A stretch of 64,000 nucleotides of DNA. Source: a bacterium. GTDB lineage: Bacteria; Patescibacteriota; Patescibacteriia; SBBB01. The stretch is taken from assembly GCA_005239895.1 (NCBI GenBank), contig SBBB01000027.1, forward strand, positions 376 to 64,375. The letters run 5' to 3'. Under the pieces are notes generated by a model. That model did not search any database and was not told the origin of the DNA. It saw only the letters and a program-made list of their open reading frames with translations. This document shows, piece after piece, positions 31,149 through 55,036 of the stretch. Position 1 is the first letter of the stretch. Every line of letters starts with the position of its first letter. The position numbers and the translations under genes were made by a program.

Positions 31149-31811
31149 ATGCAAATTATACACAAAAAAATTAAACATATTATACCTTCAGCATCTAATG
31201 GGATGCATCCCGAAGTGTTAACTAAAAAACAAATTGAGCTATTGCCGCTGATTAAATTATTTTCTAGTAATTTTGGTTTAGTTGGAGGTACGGCGATTGC
31301 TTTACAAATAGGTCACAGAGGATCATTAGATTTTGATCTTTTTACTAATAAAAGATTTGATAATTTATCAATAAGGGAAAAGATTTTAAAATATGGAAAA
31401 ATAGAAAAAGTTTTGGTTGATCATAAAGACGAGTATACTGTTTTGATAAAAGGAACAAAAATAACATTTCTTTATTATCCTTTTCAGCTGGCATTTTCTA
31501 AAAATTTTAACAATATTATAAAAATGGCTGATCTTTTAACAATAGCAGCTATGAAAGCTTACGCTCTTGGTCGTCGAGCAAAGTGGAAAGATTATGTGGA
31601 TCTTTATTTTATTTTAAGTATTTATAGTATGGATAAAATTATTCAAAAAGCTGATAAAATATTTGGCTCTGAATTTGATCAAAAATTGTTTAAGGTTCAG
31701 TTGAGTTATTTTAAAGATATTGATTATTCCGAAAAAATAATTTATAGGGACAAATTTCAAACTAGTGATAATACCATTAAAAAAGGATTGTTAGATTTTA
31801 TTTTTAAGTAA
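31149..31811 (+). CDS. AbiEii/DUF1814-family nucleotidyltransferase (type IV TA toxin-like)
   Basis: GLVGGTAIALQIGHRGSLDFDLF N-terminal NTase motif. C-terminal R.KWKDYVDLYFIL motif of the AbiEii family. Confidence 0.6.
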   Translation: MQIIHKKIKHIIPSASNGMHPEVLTKKQIELLPLIKLFSSNFGLVGGTAIALQIGHRGSLDFDLFTNKRFDNLSIREKILKYGKIEKVLVDHKDEYTVLIKGTKITFLYYPFQLAFSKNFNNIIKMADLLTIAAMKAYALGRRAKWKDYVDLYFILSIYSMDKIIQKADKIFGSEFDQKLFKVQLSYFKDIDYSEKIIYRDKFQTSDNTIKKGLLDFIFK

Positions 31812-37471: not shown

Positions 37472-38722
37472 ATGCCAAAAATAAAAAAGAAACTTAAAGT
37501 TAACAAAAAAAAGTTATTGGTTGTTAAAAAGAAACTTAAAGTTAACAAAAAAAAGCTGTTAGTTACTAAAAGCAAGAGCAGTTTTAAAAAACATAAAAAA
37601 CACTACAAGTTCCACAGGCCATTAAAGAATCTTAAAAAACCAGTGGTTGTTTTTGATCAAGCTGTAGCTCAGGCTTTGTTTAGAAAAGGAGAGGTGAGAG
37701 AGTTTATTACTTATCAAGAATTATTGTATGCTTTTACAGATGTCGAAGAGTATTTAGATGATTATTTGCGCTTTTTAGATTCTTTAGAAGCTCGCGGTAT
37801 AGAAATAAGAGAATCAGCTACGGAGTTTTTAAATTCGGAGCCTAAAAAAATAAAATTAAAGAATGAACCAGTTTATATTGGCAAGGGTTTGGATTTAGTT
37901 CAAGACCCTTTACAAATTTATTTAACGGAAATTGGAAATACTTCTTTATTGGATAGTGTCAATGAAACCATATTAGCTAAAGAAAAAGAAAGCGGTTCTA
38001 TGGATGCTAGGGCTAAGTTAATTAAAGCGAACTTACGTTTGGTTGTTTCTATTGCTAAAAAATTTGTGGGTAAGGGTTTGTCGCTTTTAGATTTAATTCA
38101 AGAAGGTAATATTGGAATTTTTAAGGCGGTGGAAAAATTTGAGTATCGCAAGGGTTACAAATTTTCCACTTATGCGACCTGGTGGATACGTCAATCTATT
38201 ACGCGCGCCTTAGCTGATCAGTCTAGGATTATTCGCATTCCAGTTCACATGGTTGAGAATATTAATAAATTGCAGCAAGTTCAAAGGCAGCTGGTGCAAG
38301 ATTTAGGGCGCGAATCATTTTTGGAAGAAATTGCCACGGAAATGAACGAAGATATTGACCGCGTTAGATATATTATTAAGATTTCGCAAGACACACTGTC
38401 GTTGGCTACTATTATTGGCAATGACGACGACGAAAGCACCTTAGAAGATTTTATTGAAGATGTAAAAAATGTTCGTTCGGATACAGCCGCGAGTTTGGAA
38501 ATTTTAAAAACCTACATTCGCGATGTTTTGAGTAGTTTAAAACCCAGAGAGCAGAAAATTTTATCTATGCGGTTTGGTTTAGCCGATGGTATTTCCCATA
38601 CCCTGGAAGAGATTGGTCAAGAGTTTAAAGTAACGCGGGAAAGAATTAGGCAGATTGAAGCTAAGACTATTGAAAAAATTCTTAAACATAGGGACATTAA
38701 AAAATTAGAAGATTTTTATTAA
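37472..38722 (+). CDS. rpoD: RNA polymerase sigma factor RpoD with Lys-rich repetitive N-terminal tail
   Basis: Region 2 [17 protein letters not shown]...TYATWWIRQ, region 4 HTH. N-terminal [27 protein letters not shown] encoded by a ~42-bp tandem repeat at 37487..37554. Confidence 0.9.
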
Positions 38723-38756
38723 TCCGTTGCATGATTTTTTGTCATTGCTGTTTTTT

Positions 38757-38940
38757 TGTCATTCCCGCGAAGGCGGGAATCCAGGAGCGTGCACACTTAT
38801 CATTATTGTTTCGATCGTACGAAATACCAAACTCCAATTGCACTGAGACTCTCAGAGTCGAATACTTGAGGGTCTTCAGACCCGATGGGATTCAAAATTT
38901 TAATAAAAAACCTGGATTCCCGCCTGCGCGGGAATGACAG
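38757..38940. repeat. MITE-like GC-rich palindromic element (copy 2)
   Basis: TGTCATTCCCGCGAAGGCGGGAATCCAGG at the 5' end and CCTGGATTCCCGCCTGCGCGGGAATGACAG at the 3' end (inverted ATTCCC-N8-GGGAAT hairpins). Internal GAGACTCTCAGAGTC palindrome. The 68-aa ORF inside it is spurious. Confidence 0.7.
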
Positions 38941-39042
38941 GGCGGATATTTTAATCAAGCAAGTAAGTTATATAATAATTACTTAGTCTTGATATTTATA
39001 TAATGATTATTGTATGATATTTAATACCAGTTAAGATAATAT

Positions 39043-39117
39043 TCCGGTGTAGCGCAGCGGTAGCGCAGGTGCCTGTTAAGCACTTGGTCGCAGGTTCGAA
39101 TCCTGCCACCGGAGCCA
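39043..39117 (+). tRNA. tRNA-Asn (anticodon GTT), CCA encoded
   Basis: TCCGGTG acceptor, GCGC-AGCGGTA-GCGC D-arm, anticodon loop CTGTTAA, T-arm GCAGG-TTCGAAT-CCTGC, GCCA 3' end. Confidence 0.9.
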
Positions 39118-39120
39118 TCT

Positions 39121-39186
39121 TACGCTAAAGCTACAGAATGGCTGACGCCATCTTACGCTAAAGCTACAGAATGGCTGACGCCATCT
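39121..39186 (+). repeat. two tandem 33-bp units (TACGCTAAAGCTACAGAATGGCTGACGCCATCT), each ending with a copy of the tRNA-Asn 3' end GCCATCT
   Basis: Perfect direct repeat immediately 3' of tRNA-Asn. GCCATCT occurs at 39114, 39147 and 39180. T-run follows. Confidence 0.7.
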
Positions 39187-39331
39187 TTTTGTTAAAATCG
39201 CAGTTTTACTGTAGTAATCAAATTTATTGTTAGTTTAAAATATAGACAAAATCAAAATATTTTGGTAGCCTAAATTTAGTCAAAAAACTAGGAACAAAAC
39301 ATCCAAATCTAAAATTTTAAGGAGGGGCTTG

Positions 39332-39955
39332 ATGAAAAAGGAAATTAAGAAAATTTTTGTATTAGATGAGTTCACAAACGGACACAGAGCTGCAAGGGTT
39401 TTTATGAAACAGTATAGTTGGTTAGAATCAGAATATGAGATTGTTTTTTGTGGTAACCATGCGAATGTTTTGAAACAGCTCCAGAAACGACGCGCTTACG
39501 CTGTAGTTCCTGTTCATAACTCTATTGCGGGGAATATTAAAGAAGTAACTAGAAAACTAGCAATGATGAGAAATAATGGATATATTTTGGAGGAAATAGG
39601 GTGTCTTGATCTTCAGGTTGATCATTGCCTCTTAGCACATCAGAACGTGCAGAGACCTGAGGATTTAGAAGGCGTAATGTCACATAAACAAGTGATTCGG
39701 CAGTGTAGACGATTTCTAGATAAAATCGATATTAAACACGACAAACGAAAAACAAGTGATTCAACAACTGGCAAGGCCATAAAAATTATTACCAAACTAG
39801 GTTGCGAATGCAAAATTGGGATTATTGCTTCCCAGGAAGCTGCGGAAGCATACAATCTTAAAATTTTAGCTAAGAATATCCAAGATGTTCTTAATAATAA
39901 GACCACGTTTCTGCTTCTTGAAAATAAAACACTGATTAAGCGAGTTACGGAATGA
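39332..39955 (+). CDS. prephenate dehydratase-domain protein (no ACT domain)
   Basis: AVVPVHNSIAGNI and NKTTFLLLE match PDT motifs (vPiENS..G.. ; N.TRF). AAGGAGGGG RBS. Confidence 0.5.
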   Translation: MKKEIKKIFVLDEFTNGHRAARVFMKQYSWLESEYEIVFCGNHANVLKQLQKRRAYAVVPVHNSIAGNIKEVTRKLAMMRNNGYILEEIGCLDLQVDHCLLAHQNVQRPEDLEGVMSHKQVIRQCRRFLDKIDIKHDKRKTSDSTTGKAIKIITKLGCECKIGIIASQEAAEAYNLKILAKNIQDVLNNKTTFLLLENKTLIKRVTE

Positions 39956-40221
39956 GGGCCGATGATTTGTTTCGGTCCTCATTTAAGATATTGTTCAGGT
40001 TGTAAATTAATAGTCAGTTAAATTAAGTGCCGAGCAAGTTAATATTTACTTTTTTAAAATTTGTGTTAATTTTTTTTGAAAAAATAAAAAAATAAAAATG
40101 CTTTTAGAGATTATATAAAAATAAAAGTTAATAAAAATGACAAGGCCGAGTTTCGCGATAAAGTTACTGCGAAACCCGGCTTAAGATAATTTAATGTTCC
40201 AGTTTTTAATACTGTTGTTGG

Positions 40222-41553
40222 TTATTCCAGAAACATGGGGATTTTTTCGCCTCGTGTCAAATCCTCGCGTGTCTCTCGTACCCGTATTATATAATACTGC
40301 TCATCGTCAACCAATATTTCCGGCACACGTGGTCTTGCGTTATAGTTAGAGGCCATAGCAAGACCATATGCCCCTGCGCTCATTATAGCTAAAAGCTCAT
40401 CGGGCATCACTTCTGGCATAGTACGATCCTGCGCCAGAAAATCGCCTGACTCACAAATTGGCCCTACAACATCCACCACTTCATGTCGCCTTTCATTTTT
40501 TGCTACTGGTAAAATATGGTGATACGCCTCGTATAGTGAAGGACGGATTAGGTCGTTCATAGCAGCATCAACAATAATGAATTTTTTTGCATCGGTTGTT
40601 TTAGTATAAATCACGCGAGTTACCAAAATACCAGCATTCGCCACAATTGATCGCCCGGGCTCCATAATAATGGAGCAGCCACTGGCTTTCAGAATCGGTA
40701 GAATGTTTTTGGCAAGTTCAGTAGGATTTGGAGGTGTTTCTTGATCATATTGCACCCCTAATCCTCCACCAATATTCCAATAACGGATATCAAACCCATC
40801 TGATTGGATAAGCTCGCTCATTTTTTTAATGGCAGCGATAAACGGTTTGACGGTGGTTAGTTGTGAGCCGATGTGGGAATGAACCCCAGTCACATTGATG
40901 TGGTTCAATCGTCCAGCCAATTTGTACAAAGGTAAGACGCTGGAATGAGCTATGCCGAATTTACTCTTTTTTAAACCTGTGGAAATATAAGGATGTGTTT
41001 TTGGGTCCACATCCGGGTTGACCCGCAAGGCAACGGAGGCTTTTTTACCACACGACTTTGCAGCTGCGTCAAGCGCAATCAATTCCTGTTCTGATTCCAC
41101 GTTAAATAAAAGGATACCGGCTTGTAAAGCCTCACACATCTCTTCCTTTGTTTTTCCAACGCCTGCAATAACAATTTTTTCAGGTGAAATTCCAGCTTTT
41201 AATGCTAGGTAAAGTTCACCGCCGGAGACAATATCCACTCCTGCTCCTTCTTTTCCTAAAAGGTGAAGCACTGTCAGGCTAGAATTAGCCTTCATCGCAT
41301 AAGCAATTATGTGCGGCACAGTTGAGAAAGCTTTTTGGTATGTGATAATTTGTTTCCGTAATGCACCAGCGCTGTAAAGATAAAACGGTGTTCCTATATC
41401 TATTGCTATTTTCTCAACAGGAACATTCTCACAATAGAGTTGACTTGTTTTGTATGGGAAATATTGATTGTACACGATTCTCCTTTCAAAAGAAGTATTC
41501 CACTGTTTAGTGGAAAGTTCTTTTTTTACCAAAATGATTTTTATTTTACGCAC
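40222..41553 (-). CDS. lysA: diaminopimelate decarboxylase
   Basis: Fold-III PLP decarboxylase: YAMKANSS, GGGLGV, CESGD. GTG start. GC clearly above the genome background. Confidence 0.8.
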   Translation of the reverse strand: MRKIKIILVKKELSTKQWNTSFERRIVYNQYFPYKTSQLYCENVPVEKIAIDIGTPFYLYSAGALRKQIITYQKAFSTVPHIIAYAMKANSSLTVLHLLGKEGAGVDIVSGGELYLALKAGISPEKIVIAGVGKTKEEMCEALQAGILLFNVESEQELIALDAAAKSCGKKASVALRVNPDVDPKTHPYISTGLKKSKFGIAHSSVLPLYKLAGRLNHINVTGVHSHIGSQLTTVKPFIAAIKKMSELIQSDGFDIRYWNIGGGLGVQYDQETPPNPTELAKNILPILKASGCSIIMEPGRSIVANAGILVTRVIYTKTTDAKKFIIVDAAMNDLIRPSLYEAYHHILPVAKNERRHEVVDVVGPICESGDFLAQDRTMPEVMPDELLAIMSAGAYGLAMASNYNARPRVPEILVDDEQYYIIRVRETREDLTRGEKIPMFLE

Positions 41554-41754
41554 TTACGTAAAACAAACTAGCTCCTTGGTGAAGAACTAGTTTATATTTA
41601 GTAATTTTTTTTAATTACTACGTATAAACAAAATCTTCACTAATATTTTTAATCGACAATTTTATTCATTTTGTTTGATAAAGTTTTGTGTGGTACAGGG
41701 CTAATTTATGAGCTAGCCCTGTACCTTGAATATAAATGTAAAGGAAGGGTTTTG

Positions 41755-42933
41755 TTACCTTCCTGTAATTCCAGCCTTTTCCATCCGATCAACCGCCTCC
41801 AAAAGACGCGTTGTTGGGGAAGTGAGAGTCATGCGGATAAATCCTTCTCCTGCTTCTCCAAATCCAATACCAGGTGTTGCCACAATTGATGTCTCGGCAA
41901 GGAGTCGGGACGCGAATTCAGCTGATAATGTATGGGAAGGAATTTTAATCCAGACATAAAAACTGGCCTTGGGTGATTCAATTTGAAATCCCAGTTTTTG
42001 AAGACCTGGAACCAAGACGTCACGACGTTCTTGATAAATTCTTCGAATATTGTTTAATATGTGGTCTTCCGTTTTTAAAGCAGTTATTCCTGCCTCTTGT
42101 ATTGCCTGAAAGACCCCCGAATCCAGATTGCTTTTAACCTTCAGGAGCGCTGCCAATGCTTCTTTATTTCCTACAGCAAAACCAATGCGCCATCCAGTCA
42201 TGTTAAACGTCTTAGAAAGGGAGTGAAACTCAATTCCAACTTCTTTAGCTCCGGGAACTTCCAGAAAACTTAAAGGACGGATATCGTTATAGTAAATTTC
42301 CGAATAAGCTGCGTCATGACAGATCAGGATATTGTAGCGGTTAGCAAAAGCAACGACTGATTCAAAAAATTCGCGAGTTGCGACCGCTGTTGTTGGATTA
42401 TTGGGAGAATTGATGAAAAACATTCGGGCTTTCCTGGCCACTGATTCTGGAATGGAGTGCAAATCAGGTAGAAATCCGTTTTCTTCAAGAAGGGGAACAA
42501 AATAAGACTCGCCCCCGGCAAAGAGAGTTCCGGCATGGTAAACTGGATATCCAGGGTCGGTCATTAGGGCTGTATCACCGGGATTGATAAAAGCCAATGG
42601 TGCATGACCAATTCCTTCCTTTGATCCAATTAATGTAACCACTTCGGTATAAGGATCTAACGCGACATTAAATCGCCCTTGATACCATTGCGCCACGGCC
42701 TCACGAAAGGATGGCATACCTTCGTAAGACGGATACTGATGATTTTTAGGAATGGCTGCTGCTCTCTGTAATCGCTCAATAATTGACGTGGGAGTAGGCA
42801 GGTCTGGATCGCCGATGCCTAAGTTGATAACATCTTTTCCTTCGCGGATCGCTTCCTGCTTCATTGCATCAATTGCGGCAAAAAGATAAGGGGGAAGCTT
42901 TTTAATACGGTCGGCTGGAATAACTTTTGTCAT
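41755..42933 (-). CDS. dapL: LL-diaminopimelate aminotransferase-like class I aminotransferase
   Basis: KKLPPYLFAAIDAMKQEAIREGKDVINLGIGDPDLPTP matches the DapL N-terminal signature. AAGGAGG RBS before ATG at 42933. Elevated GC. Confidence 0.6.
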   Translation of the reverse strand: MTKVIPADRIKKLPPYLFAAIDAMKQEAIREGKDVINLGIGDPDLPTPTSIIERLQRAAAIPKNHQYPSYEGMPSFREAVAQWYQGRFNVALDPYTEVVTLIGSKEGIGHAPLAFINPGDTALMTDPGYPVYHAGTLFAGGESYFVPLLEENGFLPDLHSIPESVARKARMFFINSPNNPTTAVATREFFESVVAFANRYNILICHDAAYSEIYYNDIRPLSFLEVPGAKEVGIEFHSLSKTFNMTGWRIGFAVGNKEALAALLKVKSNLDSGVFQAIQEAGITALKTEDHILNNIRRIYQERRDVLVPGLQKLGFQIESPKASFYVWIKIPSHTLSAEFASRLLAETSIVATPGIGFGEAGEGFIRMTLTSPTTRLLEAVDRMEKAGITGR

Positions 42934-43216
42934 GGTATACCTCCTTTGTTTTTCCACACCCAATAAGTGGAGTTTATCTACTCACTGGCTATTTCCAGTG
43001 ATAGTAGGGCTGTGCTGTTTTCAGTAAAGACCTTAAATTATTAATACAGTATTTAATTTTTGTCAACTTTTTGCTAACAATACTTGTTTTTTTAAAAAAT
43101 TGTGTTAATCTGTAATTAATAGGTTTAATTAACAGGAAGGCTGCCAAAATTACTTTTTGGCAGGAAACTGAAACAACATTGGCTGATGTTAAGCCAGCAA
43201 AGAAAAGGAGGAAATA

Positions 43217-43714
43217 ATGATAATTACAATTTCAGCAGACAGGGTTCGAGAGCTTATTCAACTTCTGAAAAGAAATCAAGAGTTAGATACTGGATATGAG
43301 TATTTAGAAGCTGAGACAGGATACGGTTTCATTATAAAAAATATGACGCCACAGTTTGGGGAGATAAACAAGCTGTTAGATAATAGGGAGCACATTGCTT
43401 TCTTAGATCATATGAAATTACGTGTTGAGTTGGTCACAGGAAACCTTGCGGTTTTTTTATTCCAAAACTTCGTGTCACTCACAATAGATTATTCTAAGAT
43501 GATTGAAGGGGCAAAACCGATATTTGAATATCACCCTTCATCAGAATCAGAAAATTATGTATCTATCAGGAGATATCTCACTGTTGACGACTATAGTGAC
43601 AATGATTCATTAATAAAGATGATTCAAAAAATGATTGAGGAGTGCAAACGTGTTTATCAGGAGTATCACAAAGAGCCTGAGCCAGCGATCATACCTTCTG
43701 TCCTTGGTGCTTAA
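43217..43714 (+). CDS. hypothetical protein
   Basis: 165 aa, AAGGAGG RBS, no motif. Confidence 0.35.
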   Translation: MIITISADRVRELIQLLKRNQELDTGYEYLEAETGYGFIIKNMTPQFGEINKLLDNREHIAFLDHMKLRVELVTGNLAVFLFQNFVSLTIDYSKMIEGAKPIFEYHPSSESENYVSIRRYLTVDDYSDNDSLIKMIQKMIEECKRVYQEYHKEPEPAIIPSVLGA

Positions 43715-43817
43715 TAACGGATGGCTGAAATTTCTATTTGTATCATTTATTGAAACGGGGGAGTTTTTCAAAGACTCCCCCAAAATGCAAAAAACATTTT
43801 ATTAGTGAAGATAATTT

Positions 43818-44969
43818 ATGAAATTTTTTTCATTTGCAGACAAACGTGAAATATATCGAATACATGTTTTACATTCACTGCGCGGTTTCGCGTCGTCAAT
43901 AATAAGCGTCTATGTTCCTATCTTTCTTTTAACCTTGGGGTATTCGTTATCAAAAGTCATTATATTTTTTATTGTTTTTCACATTACGGGTTTATTATTT
44001 ACCATTTTTGTTTGTCCGATCCTAATTCGCAAATTGGGTCCAGTGCGACTTATAAAAATTTATTATCCCCTGGAAATTAGTTATCTTATTTTACTTAACT
44101 TTCTCTCAGCTTTTCCGTCTTTGTTTTTTGTTATAGCTATAATGGGAGGTCTGGCAATGTTTTCTTATTGGATTCCGGTTAAGATTCTTTTAATCAAAAA
44201 AGCAGAAAAAGAAAAAATGGGAAGTGACTTGGCAAACTTTTTCGTGCTACCAAAAGTATTTGGGATTATCGGACCGCTTATAAGCGCTGGCCTTATACCA
44301 CTCATTGGATTCTGGCCCGTATTTTTAATAGCTATATCCATATTAGTTTTTTCATACTTGCCACTAATTGGTATTAGTGGTAGGGAGATAATACAAAATT
44401 TTGATATTAGATTATCTCGAGTATGGAGTAAATTACGCGAAAGAAAATCATTATTTATACTGGAACTCTTTGACGATATCGTTGGACAGTCGGAGTGGTT
44501 CTGGGGAATTTTTGTTTTTCTTATTATTGGAACCCTTGAAGCTCCTGGGATTGTGGGAAGCCTCAATACTTTAGGTAGCATTATATTTACGATCATAGTT
44601 GGAAAATATGCCAACAAAAATTCTAAGGTTTTAGTACCAATTGCTTCAGTATGTATAGCCATAGTATGGATCGCGCGCGTATTTATTGAAAAAGCTTTAT
44701 CAGCATATCTTATTACTATTGTTGCTTCGTTTGTTATGACATTCTTTTTGGTGTCTTATTTTAGTACGATTTATCGCACGGTGAAAAATCAGCAAGAGGA
44801 GGAATTTCTTATTTTGCGAGAAATACCAATGGTTTTAGGGCGTCTTATTGTTTTTGGAGCAATTTTAATCACTGCCAACAGTCCGCGCTTGTTTTTTGCA
44901 CTCCCTATTTTTGCCACACTCGTATTCCTGGTAGTATTTATGTCAACTAGAGATAAGTTAGCAGCGTAA
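43818..44969 (+). CDS. MFS-type transporter-like membrane protein
   Basis: About 11-12 TM helices, 383 aa. Confidence 0.45.
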   Translation: MKFFSFADKREIYRIHVLHSLRGFASSIISVYVPIFLLTLGYSLSKVIIFFIVFHITGLLFTIFVCPILIRKLGPVRLIKIYYPLEISYLILLNFLSAFPSLFFVIAIMGGLAMFSYWIPVKILLIKKAEKEKMGSDLANFFVLPKVFGIIGPLISAGLIPLIGFWPVFLIAISILVFSYLPLIGISGREIIQNFDIRLSRVWSKLRERKSLFILELFDDIVGQSEWFWGIFVFLIIGTLEAPGIVGSLNTLGSIIFTIIVGKYANKNSKVLVPIASVCIAIVWIARVFIEKALSAYLITIVASFVMTFFLVSYFSTIYRTVKNQQEEEFLILREIPMVLGRLIVFGAILITANSPRLFFALPIFATLVFLVVFMSTRDKLAA

Positions 44970-44974
44970 ACTAT

Positions 44975-45014
44975 GTCTACACTCACTTCGGCGCGGCCGC
45001 GCTGAGTTGTAGAC
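44975..45014. terminator. GC-rich nested hairpin GTCTACA...CGCGGCCGCG...TTGTAGAC
   Basis: Directly 3' of the MFS gene. Paralogous hairpin at 50191..50222. Confidence 0.5.
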
Positions 45015-45098
45015 GGGACAATGTTTAGTTACTTAACAGTCTGACCACTAAGTAATAGTAGGTTGAAATCTATTAAGAGAAATGGTAGAATTCAAAAT

Positions 45099-45644
45099 AT
45101 GTCTATAAAAATTACTTATTTTGTTCATGGCACTAGTATTGATAATGAAACAGAAATTTCATCTGGGTGGTCTGATGTTGGACTTTCAGAATTAGGTGTA
45201 AAGCAATCAGTTGATTTAAAAGAAAAAATTAAAGATAAAAAATTTGATGTTGTGTTTTGTTCGGACTTGAAACGAGCTGTAGATTCAGCAAAGCTAATAT
45301 TTGAGGGTGAAGTATCGATTATTCCTGACACGCGATTACGAGAGTGCAACTACGGCCTATATACTTCCCAGCCATCGAGTATTGTTGAGCCTATGCACGA
45401 AAAGAGGATAACCGATAAATTTCCAAATGGTGAGAGTTATGAGGATATAAAAGCAAGAATTAACGATTTTCTAAATTTTCTAAAACAAAATTATGATGGC
45501 AAAAGTATTGCTATAGTTGCCCATAAGGCTCCACAACTTGCATTTGATGTTTTACTTAAAGATAAAACTTGGGAAGAAGCGTTTAGGGAAGACTGGCGTA
45601 AAACAAAAGCCTGGAAACCAGGCTGGGAATATATTATGCGTTAA
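45099..45644 (+). CDS. histidine phosphatase family protein with RHG-to-VHG substitution
   Basis: KITYFVHGTS in place of the canonical RHG. Otherwise PGM-family-like (SDLKRA, IVAHKAP). Confidence 0.5.
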   Translation: MSIKITYFVHGTSIDNETEISSGWSDVGLSELGVKQSVDLKEKIKDKKFDVVFCSDLKRAVDSAKLIFEGEVSIIPDTRLRECNYGLYTSQPSSIVEPMHEKRITDKFPNGESYEDIKARINDFLNFLKQNYDGKSIAIVAHKAPQLAFDVLLKDKTWEEAFREDWRKTKAWKPGWEYIMR

Positions 45645-45678
45645 GCTTACTTAATTATAAAAGTATATAATATTCAAA

Positions 45679-47622
45679 ATGTCTGATAAAACAAATTTAA
45701 AACATATTTTAATAGTTGTCATTTTAGCTATTTTATTTAGCGGAGGTTTGGTTTGGCAATTTTTGTTAGTACCCAAAGAGTCTTTTTCAGCTATAGACGA
45801 ATCTAATTTATCTAAATTACCAACCAAAGAAATTACGGAGACTTATGATCCCAAGTGGTTTGGAGAATACGTACCGGTTATGAAAGGTGAAGCTGCAAAT
45901 TATAATTATGCTGATCCGGATGCTTTGACATTGCCATCCGGTTATCGTTTATACGTAGAAGAAATGGGAAAACACCAGATTGTGAGTTTTTTCTCTAAGG
46001 ATGGTATTAATTGGAGTCGTGAGACAGGAGTGCGCGTTCATAATGCAGCTTTTGCAGATGCAATATATTTACCTGATGGTCGCGTAAGGATTTACTTTCA
46101 AGGTTTTAAAGCTATTAATAGCGCAATTTCAAATGACGAAGGTTTGTCATTTACTGCAGAGGACGGGGCGCGTGTTCCAACCGGTTGGCACGGAGAACTT
46201 GATGTTGATAATGTTGCTGCGCCAAGCGTTGTGCGTCTAATAGACGGTCGCTATCGTATGTACTATATTGGTCGAAAAATAGATGTTTCATATTGCAATA
46301 ATGTAAAGCACGTTATACTTTCGGCAATTTCTAATGATGGATTAAATTTTAGTCCTGAAAATGGTGTGCGTGTGGCTCCGGAAGATTGGCCTATTACTGC
46401 TCAAATGAAACATTGTAAATGGAGTTACATTGATGGTCCTGAGGTAGTATTGACATCCGAAGGAAACACCAAGCTTTATTTTTGGGGAGCATGCGATGGA
46501 ATTTGTTTGAGTACTTCAAAAGATGGACTAAAGTTTGAGAGAGTTGGTTCAATATTTTCAAATACTCAATTACCAACTGCTCCTAAAGGAAATGCTGGTG
46601 ATCCAGCTACTTTGCAGCTTAAAGATGCGCAGTTATTATTTTACAATAGTGTGCAGAATAATTATCAGAGTGTGTTTATCGCTAAACAAGTGGCGTCTAC
46701 TATTATACCCTTAAAGACTTCAGTTGAAACACCTCAGAAAACAAAAGAGCCAGAGCAAGAATCAAAGAAAAAAAGTTCATCTATTGAATACAAATTTCCA
46801 CCAGTCGTTAATTTTGTAGACACTGCTAGAGATGGTCCCTGGAGTAGAGATTTATGGGTAACTGAGAGTAGTGACGCCACTAATTTTAAGAAAGCTAAAA
46901 TTTTTGTGGAAAGAGCTGGCGTACCTAGTATTACTAGAGATAATAAAGATAGGCTTGTTGTTGCTTTTCAATGGTTTCCAAAAAATAATAAACAAAGTTT
47001 TGATCAAGTAGCTCTGGTTTTTTCAAAAGATTATGGAAAAACTTGGTCGCAACCTCAGCCTATGAAAATTGCAAACTTTCCTCAAGGCTATATGAGGCCT
47101 TTTGATCCCACCATTATTTCTATACCCAACGGTAAAATTCGTATGTACTTTACATCCAAACCTCAAGCTAGTCAGCCATCAATATTTTCAGCTATTTCTG
47201 AGGATGGTATTAATTATATATTTGAGCCAGGAGAAAGGTTTGGGGTGAGGGGTGAAATGGTGATTGATTCAGCAGTTGGTAGAATTGGCAATACTTGGCA
47301 TTTACTTTCGCCGGTTAATATTAAGGGAACTAGGGGCACTGCTTATCATGCGGTTTCAACTGACGGGCTTAGTTTTTCTACCAAGCCAAATATTAAATTT
47401 CAAAAGGATGTTAATTGGATAGGTAATTTATTACTATTTAACAATGGTTTAAGATTTTATGGTTCTAGTCCTAAGATTTGGTGGACATTTACCCAAAAAG
47501 GCGAGAAGTGGACCGAACCGAAATATACGAACATTGTGGGTGGTGATCCAGCCATAATCAAACTTTCTAATAAAAAATATTTAATGATTTATGTTGGTCA
47601 ATCTAAAAAAAGACTGAATTGA
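45679..47622 (+). CDS. secreted BNR/Asp-box repeat protein (sialidase/glycoside-hydrolase-like beta-propeller)
   Basis: N-terminal TM/signal. About 7 Asp-box-like repeats (SKDGINWS, SNDEGLSF, SNDGLNFS, SKDGLKF, SKDYGKTWS, SEDGINY, STDGLSFS). Confidence 0.5.
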   Translation: MSDKTNLKHILIVVILAILFSGGLVWQFLLVPKESFSAIDESNLSKLPTKEITETYDPKWFGEYVPVMKGEAANYNYADPDALTLPSGYRLYVEEMGKHQIVSFFSKDGINWSRETGVRVHNAAFADAIYLPDGRVRIYFQGFKAINSAISNDEGLSFTAEDGARVPTGWHGELDVDNVAAPSVVRLIDGRYRMYYIGRKIDVSYCNNVKHVILSAISNDGLNFSPENGVRVAPEDWPITAQMKHCKWSYIDGPEVVLTSEGNTKLYFWGACDGICLSTSKDGLKFERVGSIFSNTQLPTAPKGNAGDPATLQLKDAQLLFYNSVQNNYQSVFIAKQVASTIIPLKTSVETPQKTKEPEQESKKKSSSIEYKFPPVVNFVDTARDGPWSRDLWVTESSDATNFKKAKIFVERAGVPSITRDNKDRLVVAFQWFPKNNKQSFDQVALVFSKDYGKTWSQPQPMKIANFPQGYMRPFDPTIISIPNGKIRMYFTSKPQASQPSIFSAISEDGINYIFEPGERFGVRGEMVIDSAVGRIGNTWHLLSPVNIKGTRGTAYHAVSTDGLSFSTKPNIKFQKDVNWIGNLLLFNNGLRFYGSSPKIWWTFTQKGEKWTEPKYTNIVGGDPAIIKLSNKKYLMIYVGQSKKRLN

Positions 47623-47706
47623 TGTTCCCTTGAACTAACAATATGTTTTATAATTTTAGCAGTCAAAAAATTCAGGGACTTTATACTAAGAGAGCATTCA
47701 AAAGTT

Positions 47707-47729
47707 ACTTAGAAGCAAGGCACCTAAGT
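47707..47729. repeat. REP-like hairpin ACTTAGAAGCAAGGCACCTAAGT
   Basis: Inverse-orientation variant of the 2458/15828 unit. Confidence 0.6.
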
Positions 47730-47762
47730 TTTACAAAAATAAATATATTTTAACTTAATATT

Positions 47763-48677
47763 ATGAAAACAATTGTAACTGCCGAAGCTAAGGGAGCAGA
47801 CATAGATGTATTTGCTTGCGCTGTTGCATATGCTGAATTATTGAGCCTTGAAGGTAAAGAATCAATTCCGGTTATTCCTGGAATGTTTACGGCCAGTGTT
47901 ACGCCTTCCATACTTGCTTGGGGCGCAAAATACGAAACCATCTATAGTTCCGATGGTTCTGAAAATTTTGTATTAGTAGATATTTCTGATCCGGATCAAT
48001 TCCCAAGTTTCGTTTTTCATAATCGAATTAGTGAAATATATGATCATAGAAGTGGACACGAAACATATTGGAAGGATAGAATACAAAATAACGCTCATAT
48101 TGAAATGGTTGGCGCGTGTGGAACACTTATTTGGGAACAATTTAAAAAGCGCGCAAAAGAAAAGGATATTAGTATGGTCTCTGCAAAATTATTACTGGCA
48201 TCCATTGTTTCTAATACCCTGGCTTTTAGATCCCTAAATGTTACGGAACGAGATAAAGTTGCGTATGCTGAATTGAGTGCCATCACTGGGCTTTCGGAAG
48301 AGTGGATTCAAAAATATTTTTTAGAGCAAGAAGATATTTTATTAAAAAATTTTGAGCAATATTTGCGGGCTGATACTAAAGTATTTAAAACTGCTTCAGG
48401 TGATTTTGCAATTGGTCAAATTGAAATATGGGATGCGACTGATTTATTGAACACCAGAAAAAATGAACTGGATCACATTATGTCTGAATATGAATCTATG
48501 CCTTGGATTGTTAACATTCCTAATATTTCAAAAGGATTTAATTATGTATATTCAAAAAGTTTGCGGGGCAAAGAAATCATAGAAAAAGTATGTGGTTTAA
48601 AATTTGAGAATGATATTGCTACTACCAAAGGTTTACTTATGCGAAAATATCTCATGAAAGTTTTGAGGGAAGTGTAA
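47763..48677 (+). CDS. DHH-family protein resembling family II inorganic pyrophosphatase with degenerate motifs
   Basis: ...DIDVFACAVAYAEL (DxD kept, upstream His/Asn lost), DHRSG instead of DHH, SNTL instead of SDTL. Length 304 aa as for PpaC. Confidence 0.4.
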   Translation: MKTIVTAEAKGADIDVFACAVAYAELLSLEGKESIPVIPGMFTASVTPSILAWGAKYETIYSSDGSENFVLVDISDPDQFPSFVFHNRISEIYDHRSGHETYWKDRIQNNAHIEMVGACGTLIWEQFKKRAKEKDISMVSAKLLLASIVSNTLAFRSLNVTERDKVAYAELSAITGLSEEWIQKYFLEQEDILLKNFEQYLRADTKVFKTASGDFAIGQIEIWDATDLLNTRKNELDHIMSEYESMPWIVNIPNISKGFNYVYSKSLRGKEIIEKVCGLKFENDIATTKGLLMRKYLMKVLREV

Positions 48678-48752
48678 TTAGAATTTAATTTTTTGCTTTT
48701 TCTTCGGTTTTATATAACATATAGTTTAGAAAGGTTAAAATAATTGTTTTTT

Positions 48753-49424
48753 ATGAAAAAGATTCAACTTCCTACAGATAAAGCACATAGAATTTTGGCT
48801 CCACGGATAGCATATATAGTTACCACTGTTGATAAACTAGGACGAGTAAACGCAGGTTCTTTCTCAAATCTAACTTCAGTTTCGACTGATCCAGAAAGAT
48901 TAGTACTCGCTGTTTATAAAGCATGGGACACAATAAGAAATATTAGAGCAACGCGTGAATTTGTTGTGAATGTTCCATCAAAAAATTTACTTAGAGAAGT
49001 TTGGATTTGTGGAGATAAATACGCAGGTAATCCAATTCCACCTGGTATTGATGAACTGAAGATCGCAGGGCTTACAGAAATATCGAGTAAGAAGGTAAGG
49101 CCGCCACGTGTTGCCGAGTGTCCTATGCATTTGGAATGCAAAGTTGTTTGGATTAAAAATGTAGGAGACCATTATTTGATTTTGGGCGATATAGTTTCAG
49201 CTTCGTATACTCACGGTGTTTTTGATCAAGATTTTATTCAGATTATTTCAAAAACTTTGCCGTTAATGGAAATCTCGCGAGATTTTTTTACTTCTCCTGG
49301 AAAGGTTGTCACTGTGGGTCGAAAAGAAGTGCGAAAAATAGTAAACCAAGAGTTAGAGAAAATGAATATAAAAGTTTCAAAAAAGTTAAAGATTTACAAG
49401 ATGCTTCGTTGGAGTGAAGAGTAG
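48753..49424 (+). CDS. flavin reductase-like FMN-binding domain protein
   Basis: PRIAYIVTTVDKLGRVNAGSFSNLTSVSTDP pattern of the flavin reductase-like domain. Confidence 0.6.
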   Translation: MKKIQLPTDKAHRILAPRIAYIVTTVDKLGRVNAGSFSNLTSVSTDPERLVLAVYKAWDTIRNIRATREFVVNVPSKNLLREVWICGDKYAGNPIPPGIDELKIAGLTEISSKKVRPPRVAECPMHLECKVVWIKNVGDHYLILGDIVSASYTHGVFDQDFIQIISKTLPLMEISRDFFTSPGKVVTVGRKEVRKIVNQELEKMNIKVSKKLKIYKMLRWSEE

Positions 49425-49464
49425 AAATACTAGACATTTTCTAAATTAATTATTAAAACCCATT

Positions 49465-50094
49465 ATGATTAAAGCCATACTTTTTGATATTGACGGTGTT
49501 TTGTTAGATTCTTTTGAGGCAAATTTGAAATTTTTTCAAGATTTGATGCTTAGAGCTGGTTATCGCGCGCCTACACGCGAAGAATTTCCAGTAATTTTTC
49601 ATTTAAGTTTGATGGATGCAGTTAGGACTCTTACTAAGTCTGATTCAGAAGAAGAAATTAAAAGAGTATGGGAAATGGGTTATAAGCGCGAAGTTTCATA
49701 TCCTGTAGAATTATTAAATATGCCAGACGGAGCTGATAAGACCATAGCAATATTGAGTAAAAACTATTTACTTGGAATTGTTACTAGTAGAATTAAAGAA
49801 GCTGTTTATGAATCTTCTAAGCTTGCTCGTCTTGAGAAGTATTTTAAGATTGCTGTTGCGTATCAAGATACTATAAATCATAAGCCTCATCCCGAACCAT
49901 TACTTCTTGCAGCTAAAACATTAGAAGTAAATCCCAAAGAGTGTGTTTATATTGGTGATGTTGAAAACGATATTAAAGCTGCTCGCGCAGCTGGAATGAA
50001 AGTTATTATTTATTCTAAACAACAATTTAGTGAAGCTGATAAGTGTACTTCGGTATTTACCAAATTACCGGAATTAATACTAGCGTTGAAGTAA
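49465..50094 (+). CDS. HAD-IA family hydrolase
   Basis: ILFDIDGVLLDS motif I. GDVENDIKAA motif. Confidence 0.75.
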   Translation: MIKAILFDIDGVLLDSFEANLKFFQDLMLRAGYRAPTREEFPVIFHLSLMDAVRTLTKSDSEEEIKRVWEMGYKREVSYPVELLNMPDGADKTIAILSKNYLLGIVTSRIKEAVYESSKLARLEKYFKIAVAYQDTINHKPHPEPLLLAAKTLEVNPKECVYIGDVENDIKAARAAGMKVIIYSKQQFSEADKCTSVFTKLPELILALK

Positions 50095-50190
50095 AATATA
50101 AGTTTTGGATCAACATAGATGAAAATGTCAATGGAAATTATATTGATACTAGGGCTGAAATAAAAATTATTTAATAATGCAAGCCTCTAT

Positions 50191-50255
50191 CTACAACTAA
50201 ACGCGGTCGCGCCGAGTTGTAGGCAATCAATTACTTAGGAGCAAGGCACCTAAGT
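50191..50255. terminator. compound element: CTACAACT-AAACGCGGTCGCGCCG-AGTTGTAG hairpin followed by REP-like ACTTAGGAGCAAGGCACCTAAGT
   Basis: 3' of the HAD gene. Same two-part arrangement as 44975..45060. Confidence 0.55.
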
Positions 50256-50328
50256 AAACTATTGCGTGTTAATTTTTTAATGAGTAGTATAAATTTACTA
50301 GGTTTGTTTATTATAATTTTAAATAAAT

Positions 50329-50916
50329 ATGAAAACAAGGTTTATTATTGTTGGTGGCTATCCTCATAAAGCCGCGGATGAAGGAAAAGCATTTTGTGAA
50401 GAAGTTGTTAGAGGTTTTCATAATCCAGTTAAGGTTCTTAGTTGTTTATTTGCGCGTCCAATAGAAAATTGGAATATAGCCTTTGCACAAGATAGAGAGT
50501 TTTTTACAAAACATTTATTTAATATAGAAATTGATATCCAGCTAGCTAAACCAAAAACATTTACCGAACAAGTAAGATGGGCAAATTTGATATATATTCG
50601 CGGTGGCACATCAACGCATGCATTGATTGCATTGCTAAAACAGAGCGGTGAATGGCAAAAGGAGTTGATAGGAAAAACAGTTGCTGGTTCGTCTGCAGGA
50701 GCAGAAGCCATGGCGACACATTATTACAATATTGACGATTTAAAACTTGATAGTGGATTAGGGTTAGTTCCAGTTAAAGTAATTGTTCACTGGCGCTCAG
50801 ATTATAACGCACCAAATGTTGATTGGGATAAAGCATACTCAGAGTTACAAAATTATAAAGAAAGTTTGCCAATTCTTACTCTAGCCGAAGGTCAGTTTGA
50901 GGTATATGAAAAATAA
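50329..50916 (+). CDS. peptidase S51 (dipeptidase E / cyanophycinase-like) family protein
   Basis: IRGGTSTHAL and GSSAGAEAM motifs. Confidence 0.6.
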   Translation: MKTRFIIVGGYPHKAADEGKAFCEEVVRGFHNPVKVLSCLFARPIENWNIAFAQDREFFTKHLFNIEIDIQLAKPKTFTEQVRWANLIYIRGGTSTHALIALLKQSGEWQKELIGKTVAGSSAGAEAMATHYYNIDDLKLDSGLGLVPVKVIVHWRSDYNAPNVDWDKAYSELQNYKESLPILTLAEGQFEVYEK

Positions 50917-50918
50917 AT

Positions 50919-51251
50919 ATGCGTCGTAAAATTTACAACAAATTAATAAGAGATAAAATACCTGAGATTATTAAAAAGAATAAGGCTGTTCCTAAAGTTT
51001 TAGTTTTGAACGCTAAGCAATTCAAAATTGCGTTAAAAGAAAAACTAATAGAGGAAGCGAAAGAATTATTAGCAGCCAAAACTAATAAAGAAATTTTAAA
51101 TGAATTAGCAGATATTTTTGAGTTATTAGAGTCAATTGCCTTAAATAATAATATAACCATGAATCAAATTAAAAAACAAAAAGAGAAAAAGAAAAAAGAG
51201 CAAGGTGGTTTTGATAAAAAACTTTTTTTGAAATATGTTGATGAACTATAA
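50919..51251 (+). CDS. MazG-like nucleotide pyrophosphohydrolase (small all-alpha NTP-PPase)
   Basis: YNKLIRDKIPEII ... EE.KEL ... ELADIFELLE ... GGFDKK pattern. Confidence 0.55.
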   Translation: MRRKIYNKLIRDKIPEIIKKNKAVPKVLVLNAKQFKIALKEKLIEEAKELLAAKTNKEILNELADIFELLESIALNNNITMNQIKKQKEKKKKEQGGFDKKLFLKYVDEL

Positions 51252-51370: not shown

Positions 51371-51506
51371 GCGACGGTAGCTCAGCGGTAGAGCGCTTGT
51401 TCAGTATAGAGGAGAGTCACCGTCACACTTTTTGGTCGTAATTAATGACCGAAACTCTTTACGTTTTACGACAAGAGGTCGGGGGTTCAAATCCTCCTCG
51501 TCGCTC
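51371..51506 (+). tRNA. tRNA-like gene interrupted by a ~63-65-nt insertion in the anticodon loop (candidate intron; isotype unresolved)
   Basis: Canonical acceptor GCGACGG/TCGTCGC, U8A9, D-arm GCTC-AGCGGTA-GAGC, anticodon stem CTTGT (51396-51400) / ACAAG (51471-51475) separated by 70 nt, variable AGGTC, T-arm GGGGG-TTCAAAT-CCTCC. Confidence 0.5.
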
Positions 51507-51709: not shown

Positions 51710-52591
51710 TTAGTATAGTTCGAATTGTAGTTCAGGTTTACCAAACTCTTTTAAGGTGTGTTTAACCGAAGCTTCAGCTGCCGCACGGAGTTTGTTAGGA
51801 TTTCTGGTTAGTTCGTGTATATCCATATTAGGTGGCCAAAGAATATGTATATTCTCAGCATTATTTGCAAAATCAATTCCTTTAACAAAGTTTTGATGTC
51901 GCAAAAGTGTTTTTGTTTTTATAACACTGGTTAAGTGTGTTAAAAACAAATTTACGAATATACGTTCAGTGAAAGTTGCTATGTGTTTTTTTTCTTGGGG
52001 ACAATTTGGTAACACCAACACATGAGTTGGTGAAAAGTCTCTCATTACTTTTTGAATTGGAAAAGGTAAAGCTATACCTCCATCCATATAAAGACCATTA
52101 TTAACTTTTAAGGGTTTTTTGTATGCTAGGGGTATGGCTGAAGAAGCATATAGTGCTGACCAAGGTGATGGGTTGGCTTTTTTTACATCTAGAAAATGTC
52201 CTGTTCCGTTTATATCTGTTACTCCCACAAAAAAATCAGATGTTGTCCTGTAAACTGCATTGATATCTAATTTTTTAGATCCCATGGAAGTAGTATTTTC
52301 AATTATCGAGGCATTCATCAAGAAAGGAAAGTTTTTAAGGGATATATATTTTGAAGAGGCGAAAGGTTTATAGTAGATTGAATTACCTGTTTTAATTGAT
52401 TCTAGTCCTGCTAAATGATATGCTCCTACCCATGCTCCTGTTGAAATGCCTACGACAATGTCAACGGCATATCCTAGTCCCATAAGGTGCAACGCGTAAC
52501 AAGCTGCCGCGCTATTAACACCCAGATTACCTCCTCCCAAAATGAGGAGAAGTATTTTAATGTTTTTGTGCCGAGGATCATTAGCATCCAT
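51710..52591 (-). CDS. patatin-like phospholipase
   Basis: GGGNLG oxyanion motif, GISTGA (GxSxG) nucleophile elbow, DGG. ATG at 52591 preferred over the track's TTG at 52642. Confidence 0.75.
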   Translation of the reverse strand: MDANDPRHKNIKILLLILGGGNLGVNSAAACYALHLMGLGYAVDIVVGISTGAWVGAYHLAGLESIKTGNSIYYKPFASSKYISLKNFPFLMNASIIENTTSMGSKKLDINAVYRTTSDFFVGVTDINGTGHFLDVKKANPSPWSALYASSAIPLAYKKPLKVNNGLYMDGGIALPFPIQKVMRDFSPTHVLVLPNCPQEKKHIATFTERIFVNLFLTHLTSVIKTKTLLRHQNFVKGIDFANNAENIHILWPPNMDIHELTRNPNKLRAAAEASVKHTLKEFGKPELQFELY

Positions 52592-52770
52592 TAATTGTTT
52601 TTTCTTCCAAATCTGCGTAATTACAGTTTTTTCTGTGTTCAATGCATCCTCCTTTCTGGTCAGTTGTTTTTCTGTTTAGTTGTTAACACCGAAACGATAA
52701 AATTATAGTAGTATGTATTAAGTGACAAGTCAAGATCATAAATTGTGATATGGCATATCTAAATTTGAGA

Positions 52771-52807: not shown

Positions 52808-53032
52808 ATGAAATTAAGACCAGAGTTATTTTGGGATACGAATATTAAAAATATTGATTTAAGAAAACATGCTCAGTATATTATTGAAAAAGTAGCTGAT
52901 TTTGGTCACGATAATGAAGTGCGCTGGGTATTAAATTTATATAGTAAAAAATTATTAAGAAAAGTTATTGCTAAATCTAGGTGTTTACGTCCCGAAACAA
53001 AAGCTCTATGGGTTTTACTATTAAAAAAATAA
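52808..53032 (+). CDS. small conserved partner protein of an AbiEii-like nucleotidyltransferase (paralog of 30859..31119)
   Basis: 74 aa. LFWDTN... pattern shared with the first copy. Confidence 0.4.
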   Translation: MKLRPELFWDTNIKNIDLRKHAQYIIEKVADFGHDNEVRWVLNLYSKKLLRKVIAKSRCLRPETKALWVLLLKK

Positions 53033-53046
53033 ACAATAATCAAGAT

Positions 53047-54688: not shown

Positions 54689-55036
54689 GTGAAGAAAAAC
54701 GGAAATAAGTTTGGTGTTTGGAACTGTTTAGTTGTGTCTGTATTAGTGTTAACAATGATTTATCTAGAGAAATCATTGTTAAAAGCAGTGGTTATTGCCA
54801 TTGAACTAAGTGCGATTGTTAATATGGTATTACCATATTTTGTTTTTAAGAGAATATTGTTGGGTCGTTTTTCAATCAGTATTGGTTTTATGAGTGCCAT
54901 GTCTTTTATTCCAATTTGGAGTTTGGCCTATCCTTTTTGGTACGCGCGACCCAATTTGTTTTATGTTATGATGGTTGTGATTGTAACTGCGTATTGCGGA
55001 TGTATTTCCCGTGTGTATCTGCATTACAGTCAATAG
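54689..55036 (+). CDS. hypothetical small membrane protein
   Basis: 3 TM helices. Hairpin CCCCTTCGGC...GCTGAAGGGG at 55059-55098 downstream. Confidence 0.35.
   Translation: MKKNGNKFGVWNCLVVSVLVLTMIYLEKSLLKAVVIAIELSAIVNMVLPYFVFKRILLGRFSISIGFMSAMSFIPIWSLAYPFWYARPNLFYVMMVVIVTAYCGCISRVYLHYSQ

Follow-up and report, generated by a model that had tools for sequence, protein, structure and literature searches.

Patescibacteria of the candidate phyla radiation (CPR) are generally regarded as unable to make amino acids and as reliant on hosts, few of which are known. The appearance of lysine-pathway genes directly behind a tRNA gene in such a chromosome raises the questions of whether these genes are foreign, from which lineage they came and what they may do for the cell. 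We addressed these questions for a 64,000-nucleotide stretch, hereafter the window, of a Patescibacteria contig (SBBB01000027.1 of assembly GCA_005239895.1, positions 376 to 64,375 of the forward strand; all coordinates below are those of the window). A preliminary description, made from the letters alone, had proposed that a GC-rich island acquired by horizontal gene transfer (HGT) follows the gene for tRNA-Asn and carries genes resembling those for prephenate dehydratase (PDT), diaminopimelate decarboxylase (lysA) and LL-diaminopimelate aminotransferase (dapL). Our results suggest that two of these genes, dapL and lysA, were very probably acquired horizontally from a free-living donor related to the Nitrospirota and that they form the core of an interval, from tRNA-Asn to a histidine-phosphatase gene (39.1 to 45.0 kb), which is a lineage-specific variable slot in the chromosome.

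Predicted products of lysA and dapL

Family models match the PDT-domain gene (PF00800), lysA (TIGR01048) and dapL (TIGR03540 and NF006756), as the preliminary description had read them. The lysA product scores 505 bits with the TIGR01048 equivalog (cutoff 298), its fold is matched by PF02784 (E = 1e-60) and PF00278 (E = 6.5e-31), and it aligns from end to end with the solved LysA of Aquifex (2p3e; E = 9e-133). A lysine that binds pyridoxal phosphate (PLP), a glycine-rich loop, EPGR and CESGD are the defining motifs of LysA; in the translation and in the alignment with 2p3e the motifs are intact, as YAMKAN, NIGGGLG, EPGRS and GPICESGDF. The gene lies on the minus strand at 40222-41475. The longest open reading frame (ORF) extends up to 41553; the start is most likely GTG 41475, giving 417 aa, because the closest homologues (P0122 and P0123) are also 417 aa long and their N termini align from that codon. 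The Shine-Dalgarno (SD) sequence before this GTG, GAAAGGAGA (41487-41479), is weaker than AAGGAGG.

The dapL gene (392 aa) lies upstream on the same strand, at 41755-42933, with ATG 42933 preceded by an AAGGAGG SD at 42940-42946. Its product is a class I/II aminotransferase (PF00155, E = 3e-67) of the LL-diaminopimelate aminotransferase type (DapL2/'DapC_direct'), which exceeds the cutoff of TIGR03540 by a small margin (613 against 593) and that of NF006756 more widely (626 against 507), and its PLP-lysine motif, SLSKT, is intact. We infer that the two genes would encode a working LL-diaminopimelate (LL-DAP) aminotransferase and a working meso-DAP decarboxylase. DapL would convert tetrahydrodipicolinate (THDP) and glutamate to LL-DAP, LysA would convert meso-DAP to lysine, and the pair would give the last DAP and lysine steps for peptidoglycan and protein.

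Composition and ribosome-binding sites

The preliminary description had noted that lysA and dapL are richer in GC than their flanks, and they are: their GC contents are 42.7% and 44.2%, where the genes of the window average 33.6 ± 3.4% (per-gene z = 2.5 to 3.1), and the 2.74-kb block that they form has the highest GC of the 64-kb window (41.9% against 33.4 ± 1.4% for windows of the same length; z = 6.1). The wider claim of a higher-GC island does not extend to the rest of the interval. The rise is confined to the coding sequences (CDS) of lysA and dapL; the spacers flanking and separating them have about 27 to 33% GC, and the PDT-domain gene, an ORF of 165 codons (ORF165) and a gene resembling those of the major facilitator superfamily (MFS), at 34.6 to 36.1%, are in the normal range. 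GC at third codon positions (GC3) is 36.6% in lysA and 35.4% in dapL against 26% in the host, and both genes also have high GC1 and GC2.

In an analytic scoring of synonymous codon usage, with the remainder of the window as reference, none of the other 58 - 2 genes deviated as far as lysA (z = -8.2) and dapL (z = -7.7), which head the list of 58. All five genes of the slot are among the nine most atypical (MFS-like gene, z = -5.9; ORF165, z = -5.3, with a GC3 z of 2.0; PDT-domain gene, z = -3.8), and the three on the plus strand are the three most atypical plus-strand genes. The composition of the locus is thus significantly different, and the PDT-like, ORF165 and MFS-like genes also look foreign by composition and were probably acquired separately from dapL and lysA.

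A further claim was that several genes here have strong AAGGAGG ribosome-binding sites that are rare elsewhere. As a count this fails, since chance alone predicts 5.3 occurrences in the window and five are present; what stands is their placement, since all five sit 5 to 7 nt before start codons and three of the five lie within 39.3-43.2 kb. Only about 11 of some 60 genes in the window are led by an SD. In a genome so poor in these sites, a retained SD together with raised GC3 may flag foreign genes and be usable as a marker of HGT.

Probable donor lineage and age of the transfer

The best matches to DapL have 85, 83, 81 and 80% identity (P0002 to P0005) and come from contigs of 51 to 54% GC; those to LysA have 80% (P0122) and 78% identity, the top one lying on a 47% GC contig of GCA_005239925.1. 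In this metagenome-assembled genome (MAG) both DapL (83%) and LysA (80%) have near-best matches. The best-match contigs (47 to 54% GC) carry genes for a 2-oxoacid dehydrogenase, an H+-PPase, folK, panC and molybdopterin (MoCF) functions, a content that is not that of CPR. The next tier, at 70 to 76% identity, is Nitrospirota, and among the best 120 hits per search all those named by organism are Nitrospirota, Nitrospira or Manganitrophaceae. In neighbor-joining trees, DapL and LysA of the window fall inside the Nitrospirota radiation, beside the 80 to 85% group. A phylogeny of the two proteins, suggested in the preliminary description as a means of finding donors outside CPR, hence points clearly to one, and the proposed horizontal acquisition is supported by this nesting, by atypical composition and by absence from relatives.

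The DapL pathway itself is well known. In the Nitrospirota its genes form a conserved cluster, lysA-x-dapF-dapA-dapB…dapL-folK-panC (L006, L005 and L002), whose DapL and LysA are 70 to 85% identical to those of the window. In both settings the equivalog models are passed, the YAMKAN, SLSKT, EPGR and CESGD motifs are intact and dapL has an SD. The window differs in that it has no more of the cluster than its first gene and its last, which are adjacent and in reversed order; in that dapF, dapA, dapB, folK and panC are absent from it; in its GC3 (36% against 52 to 79%); and in that lysA has lost its ATG and starts with GTG. The genomic association expected of DapL, with dapA, dapB, dapF and lysA and without dapD, dapC or dapE, holds in the orthologues of the donor lineage (L006, L005), and in the window only lysA adjoins dapL. 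Identity between window and donor DNA is 77 to 79% and ends at the ends of the CDS. No remnants of the donor neighbors (x116, dapF, dapA, dapB, a 306-aa ORF, folK and panC) were detected in the spacers of the window; the sole x116-like match in the window is weak (38 aa, E = 0.002) and distant, at 30.9 kb.

Against the nearest donors, nonsynonymous divergence (dN) is 0.10 for dapL and 0.125 for lysA, and synonymous divergence (dS) is 1.2 to 1.6 and 1.2, respectively. The dN/dS ratios, at 0.07 to 0.10, are the same as those between donors (for dapL, 0.07 to 0.08 against 0.065 among donors). GC3 has moved about two-thirds of the way to the host (36%, compared with 52 to 59% for the nearest donors and 26% for the host); the SD of dapL is positioned about as in its donors, and lysA, without the donor ATG, now starts with GTG. 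The transfer is old and partly ameliorated, and the genes are intact under strong purifying selection. An old and near-simultaneous arrival is indicated by dS values of about 1.2 to 1.6 and by dN and dS being nearly equal in the two genes. We infer that a single lineage supplied lysA and dapL, jointly or nearly so in time, since the same MAG is near-best for both and the two genes have nearly equal dN and dS. A 21-nt direct repeat (19 of 21 positions identical; plus strand) at 40050-40070 and 43089-43109 brackets exactly the lysA-dapL block and could be a recombination footprint; the repeat is only marginally beyond chance, with a chance probability of roughly 0.05 to 0.1 in AT-rich spacers.

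The run from which the window derives (SRR6943130) also holds a 60% GC contig of Nitrospirota type (L007) with dapL-folK-panC, whose DapL is 70% identical. As L007 and the window contig come from the same run, the recipient and members of the donor phylum co-occur in the sample.

A variable slot between tRNA-Asn and a histidine phosphatase

The chromosome itself is that of a CPR bacterium, as shown by RpoD, whose best matches are Patescibacteria MAGs (Buchanan-, Falkow- and Magasanikbacteria; 57 to 61% identity); a Parcubacteria-group MAG and a metagenome contig each reach about 70%. The dnaG-rpoD pair is retained at some 60 related CPR loci, and a scan of 23 loci for tRNAs showed tRNA-Asn behind rpoD in 13 (L012, L014, L015, L028, L036, L037, L042, L043, L045, L046, L047, L095 and L116). 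None of the PDT-like, LysA, DapL, ORF165 and MFS-like proteins was found in the fetched flanks of these ~60 loci (E ≤ 1e-6 to 1e-8). In the closest genome (L047), a small deaminase-like gene separates rpoD from tRNA-Asn, behind which come four unrelated genes and, 3.5 kb after the tRNA, an orthologue of the histidine phosphatase with 66% identity; in another (L116), tRNA-Asn is followed by yet another gene set. It is because these two genomes carry different genes at this position that we regard the interval as a variable slot. Gene order at the tRNA-Asn locus, which the preliminary description had proposed comparing among related genomes, is therefore not conserved. In the window the slot is bounded by tRNA-Asn (GTT anticodon, CCA encoded; 39043-39117, plus strand), which was called by ARAGORN and by Rfam (72.4 bits), and by the histidine-phosphatase gene (45063-45644, plus strand), the native right anchor, which in Logan contigs is called as 181 aa with a start near 45099.

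Several observations weigh against the interpretation of dapL and lysA as a pair acquired from a Nitrospirota-related donor. The nearest CPR relatives are distant (RpoD 57 to 72%), and absence from them is weaker evidence than an empty site in a sister strain would be. The label 'Nitrospirota' for the donor rests on the matches at 70 to 76% identity. Genes on the minus strand of the window tend to have atypical codon usage, which inflates the z scores of lysA and dapL and leaves GC3 unaffected. The order, dapL and then lysA, is the reverse of that in the donor cluster, and a single internal deletion of one transferred fragment would therefore not account for it; two insertions, or the integration of a circularized fragment followed by trimming, might do so. 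The two enzymes are not joinable into a pathway within the window, where dapF, dapA and dapB were not found. Finally, the second assembly available to us, Logan contigs from run SRR6943130, was made from the same reads as the window contig and hence tests the assembler and not the sample. No retrieved Logan contig includes 40453-42105, which takes in the greater part of lysA, the spacer and the 3' portion of dapL, and the join between tRNA and PDT-domain gene, which crosses a 33-nt repeat where one Logan contig (L170) breaks, is seen in one assembly only.

Possible function of the dapL-lysA pair

The steps of DapL and LysA are not consecutive, since DapF acts between them and DapA and DapB are needed upstream. 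The supply of lysine and DAP to peptidoglycan, which the preliminary description had raised as a question, is a conjecture, as dapF, dapA and dapB are missing from the window. The missing steps are most likely encoded elsewhere in the genome, because lysA and dapL are equally well conserved; failing that, the prediction is that intermediates would come from a host, salvage of host DAP being the main alternative. A broader form of this alternative holds that the genes are foreign and make no lysine or DAP de novo: LysA would salvage meso-DAP, set free from the peptidoglycan of a host or neighbor, by turning it into lysine, and DapL would serve as a reversible or general aminotransferase, acting for example on phenylpyruvate from the PDT-like enzyme. 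This is possible, if on the unlikely side. It would fit with the finding of only two nonconsecutive pathway steps in the window, with the PDT-domain gene that adjoins the pair, with the DapL score just above the equivalog cutoff (613 against 593) and with the habits of CPR bacteria, which are known scavengers (PMC12455944). However, the dN/dS of dapL is as low as that of bona fide donors (0.07 to 0.08 against 0.065), giving no sign of relaxed or shifted selection. Moreover, DapL enzymes are specific for LL-DAP and THDP as a matter of established biochemistry. No usable report of DAP or lysine genes in CPR was found in our literature search.

Among groundwater Patescibacteria, HGT of genes for amino-acid metabolism has been found to be real and rare (11 horizontally transferred and 18 genomic-island genes; mSystems 2025, PMC12455944), in a report without mention of lysine, diaminopimelate or Nitrospirota. 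Like those acquisitions, the locus described here is a foreign, compositionally deviant block for amino-acid metabolism in a streamlined CPR genome. It is unlike them in that the donor phylum can be named and in that the transfer is old and ameliorated, such transfers escaping the composition-based detection of that study. The locus is a clean, fresh example of gene borrowing in CPR and no new kind of system. Its value lies in being a well-bounded case in which purifying selection has maintained two lysine and DAP genes from a nameable phylum, and in which a changed start codon, host-like spacers and partial amelioration have fitted them to the recipient. It tells us which gaps in metabolism are worth closing for such cells, and it may hint at a partner organism.

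The tRNA gene and signs of mobility

The position of the slot directly behind tRNA-Asn raises the possibility that the whole 5.9-kb interval is one tRNA-targeting island, delivered into tRNA-Asn by a tyrosine integrase that was later lost together with one attachment site. The preliminary description had reported that the 3' end of the tRNA is triplicated after the gene. This proved to be a 33-nt tandem repeat (39114-39190, plus strand, including a small terminator-like hairpin) with two perfect copies, 39114-39146 and 39147-39179, and a partial third; only GCCATCTT is present three times. The overlap of this repeat with the tRNA gene is the terminal GCCA, and the repeat ends in a hairpin, ATGGC-TGAC-GCCAT, followed by a run of T (39171-39190). 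With up to three mismatches allowed, the last 25 nt of tRNA-Asn have no second copy in the window, and the 33-nt repeat was not found downstream of tRNA-Asn in relatives. The repeat was thus rejected as an attachment site, only GCCA being shared and the 3' 25-mer of the tRNA being unique in the window, and it is not an integration scar. The statement that no integrase accompanies the island stands: neither an integrase nor a transposase was present among 39 scanned ORFs (14.6-19.3, 25.1-38.9 and 39.3-58.9 kb; those of at least 110 aa and one of 68 aa, other ORFs below 110 aa being left out).

An origin as one tRNA-targeting island would agree with the location of the interval, with the atypical composition of its five genes, with SD sites in four of the five (uncommon in the window) and with the different cargo behind the same tRNA in related genomes. 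Of these, position, composition and variable cargo are features that the locus shares with classical tRNA-linked islands. It differs from them in having no detected integrase, duplicated tRNA 3' segment or mobility genes and in its mosaic composition. No recombinase was found in the scanned ORFs, the repeat beside the tRNA shares only GCCA with it, gene GC varies from 35 to 44%, only two genes have an identifiable donor, and the spacers are host-like. Mixed orientation, with an SD and a hairpin for individual genes, suggests piecemeal assembly. We therefore consider a single island of this kind improbable. With no integrase in the scanned ORFs and no attachment repeat, the link with tRNA-Asn is positional only, and the site may be better described as a synteny breakpoint or hot spot than as a proven attachment site. 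An integron cassette array, suggested by the hairpin that each gene of the slot has, was also set aside, given the mixed orientations and the lack of intI; attC sites were not formally searched.

Partner organisms, assembly and vertical descent

If dapL and lysA came from a Nitrospirota-related donor, it is tempting to ask whether that lineage serves the CPR cell as a physical host or partner. The Nitrospirota-related organism would then have supplied dapL and lysA within the same groundwater-type community, and the CPR bacterium would keep no more than these two steps because it draws the intermediates, THDP or the LL- or meso-DAP released by murein turnover, from its partner. We regard this as a doubtful proposition. 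If it were true, the island would record the identity of the host and a lysine and DAP pathway split between organisms, and the SD-bearing, codon-atypical genes dispersed in a genome otherwise poor in SDs would mark a wider set derived from the host.

A misjoin of a Nitrospirota fragment into a CPR contig, by assembly or binning, is very hard to sustain. Nitrospirota with dapL are present in the same run (L007), and Logan contigs break inside lysA, inside dapL and in the 33-nt repeat. Against this, the identity of the two genes to known sequences reaches only 80 to 85%, their 43 to 44% GC is far below that of the homologous dapL and lysA on donor contigs (51 to 63%), their composition is intermediate between donor and host, and host-like AT-rich spacers flank and separate them. 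In addition, Logan contigs from the same reads reproduce 39158-40452 and 42106-51184 at 100% identity, covering the junction between the PDT-domain gene and lysA as well as everything from within dapL to the right flank. Vertical inheritance, in which dapL and lysA would be ancestral CPR genes lost from the sampled relatives and GC-rich through conserved, Ala- and Gly-rich protein sequence, could draw on the high GC1 and GC2 and on the few CPR-like contigs with distant LysA-like or aminotransferase-like genes (L084, 33%; L149, 32%), but it is scarcely credible, as the two genes deviate in GC3 and in synonymous codon usage too, identity is 80 to 85% to non-CPR proteins against 57 to 72% between RpoD and its closest CPR matches, and the genes nest inside the Nitrospirota with no orthologue in the ~60 related loci.

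The other three genes of the slot

The first gene of the slot (39332-39955, plus strand; 207 aa; AAGGAGG SD at 39319-39325) encodes a PDT-domain protein, with PF00800 matching residues 14-200 of the 208-aa ORF translation (116.9 bits, E = 1e-33). The protein ends about 5 to 8 residues past this match, which leaves no room for an ACT domain, and none is present. Compared with prephenate dehydratase (PheA, or PDT-ACT), it matches the catalytic domain over its full length, lacks ACT, has TTF in place of TRF and scores far below the NCBIfam equivalog cutoffs for PDT (NF008865, 101 against 219). It aligns with solved structures (2qmx and 4lub), and it is in 2qmx that the corresponding motif is TRF. 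Its family is very small, only four word-sharing homologues having been found; TTF is kept in three of these four and is STF in P0243, with T192 and F193 invariant. The nearest member (57%) is fused to a Rossmann (NAD-binding) domain resembling prephenate dehydrogenase, which hints at a prephenate-using activity different from that of PheA. The slot protein would not be called a bona fide PheA. Nothing usable on BacA-type prephenate decarboxylases was found in the literature. Members of the TTF-motif family lie at L089 (113-988) and L088 (2610-3197).

ORF165 (43217-43714, plus strand; AAGGAGG SD at 43205-43211) is an orphan of 165 aa, divergent from dapL. In keeping with the preliminary description, it has no family match in Pfam or NCBIfam, and an exhaustive HMMER search of 1.84 billion representative proteins gave only two real homologues and no functional lead. 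An AlphaFold2 model from the single sequence was unusable (mean pLDDT 41). The last gene (43818-44969, plus strand) encodes a polytopic membrane protein of 383 aa. The earlier reading of an MFS transporter holds for the membrane protein and less so for the family, since the PF07690 (MFS_1) match, over residues 19-319, is below threshold (20.6 bits against a gathering score of 33.4; E = 2.4e-4), and there is no NCBIfam match.

Expression signals

Every gene of the slot except the MFS-like gene has its own SD, and each has its own 3' stem-loop. A presumed terminator follows lysA on the minus strand (40145-40180; -22.2 kcal/mol, z = -5.2). The spacer between dapL and lysA (41476-41754), which is AT-rich (~27% GC) and without similarity to donor DNA, contains a terminator-like hairpin for dapL (41692-41725; -23.3 kcal/mol, z = -7.4). 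A hairpin, GGGGGAG…CTCCCCC, lies 3' of ORF165 (43757-43781), and the GC-rich hairpin that had been noted after the MFS-like gene is confirmed at 44967-45027 on the plus strand (-23.2 kcal/mol, z = -2.3; local GC 47%), where it forms the right edge of the slot. The best sigma-70-like promoter match of the region, TTGACA-18-AATAAT (11 of 12 positions; a consensus match only), lies on the minus strand at 43037-43066, in AT-rich DNA of native-like character some 100 nt ahead of dapL. Because of these SDs, stem-loops and the promoter-like match of dapL, the slot genes look like independent, expressed units. A search of 38650-45150 with Rfam models (E ≤ 1) gave the tRNA as the sole significant match and no riboswitch or leader upstream of dapL or lysA; the only other match listed was manA-II (24 bits, E = 0.86; gathering score 100).

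Other observations in the window and in related records

Outside the slot, SD-led genes lie at 4316-4618, 15331-15702, 17259-17870, 18333-19313, 29655-30404 and 51710-52642 on the minus strand and at 54689-55036 on the plus strand. In most of them GC3 is raised or codon usage atypical, the minus strand carries the majority, and they may be further foreign genes; that at 29655-30404 has 42.5% GC and no family match. The GC-rich SD-led genes of the window were also considered as hidden dap genes, a suggestion that was rejected, as they are patatin-like, coiled-coil or without a family match.

Numerous GTDB-set records of the related loci are titled 'uncultured Gammaproteobacteria bacterium' (TPA assemblies; L014-L016, L020, L023, L024, L026, L027, L033, L039, L041, L043, L044 and others). 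These have dnaG-rpoD of CPR type, RpoD proteins 57 to 61% identical to that of the window and, in three of five scanned (L014, L015 and L043), tRNA-Asn after rpoD; their titles appear to be mislabelled.

Between rpoD and tRNA-Asn lies a GC-rich element of ~190 bp (38745-38950) with 29-nt terminal inverted repeats that are 97% complementary. Its arms are hairpins, ATTCCCGC-N4-GCGGGAAT, and the element folds at -89.8 kcal/mol (z = -10). No exact match to it was found in 169 fetched loci, nor any match in Rfam, and a degenerate copy of its hairpin is present at 4063-4082. It could be a miniature inverted-repeat transposable element or a structured RNA. A tRNA call at 51371-51505 (Rfam 49.7 bits), which spans 135 nt and was not reported by ARAGORN, may represent an intron-containing tRNA. 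Upstream of the locus, at 25115-28115, genes for a PrgI-family protein and a TraG/VirB4-like P-loop ATPase make up a module resembling those of type IV secretion or conjugation, and two genes encode AbiEii-family nucleotidyltransferase toxins (type IV toxin-antitoxin or abortive infection), at 31149-31811 and 52981-53712.

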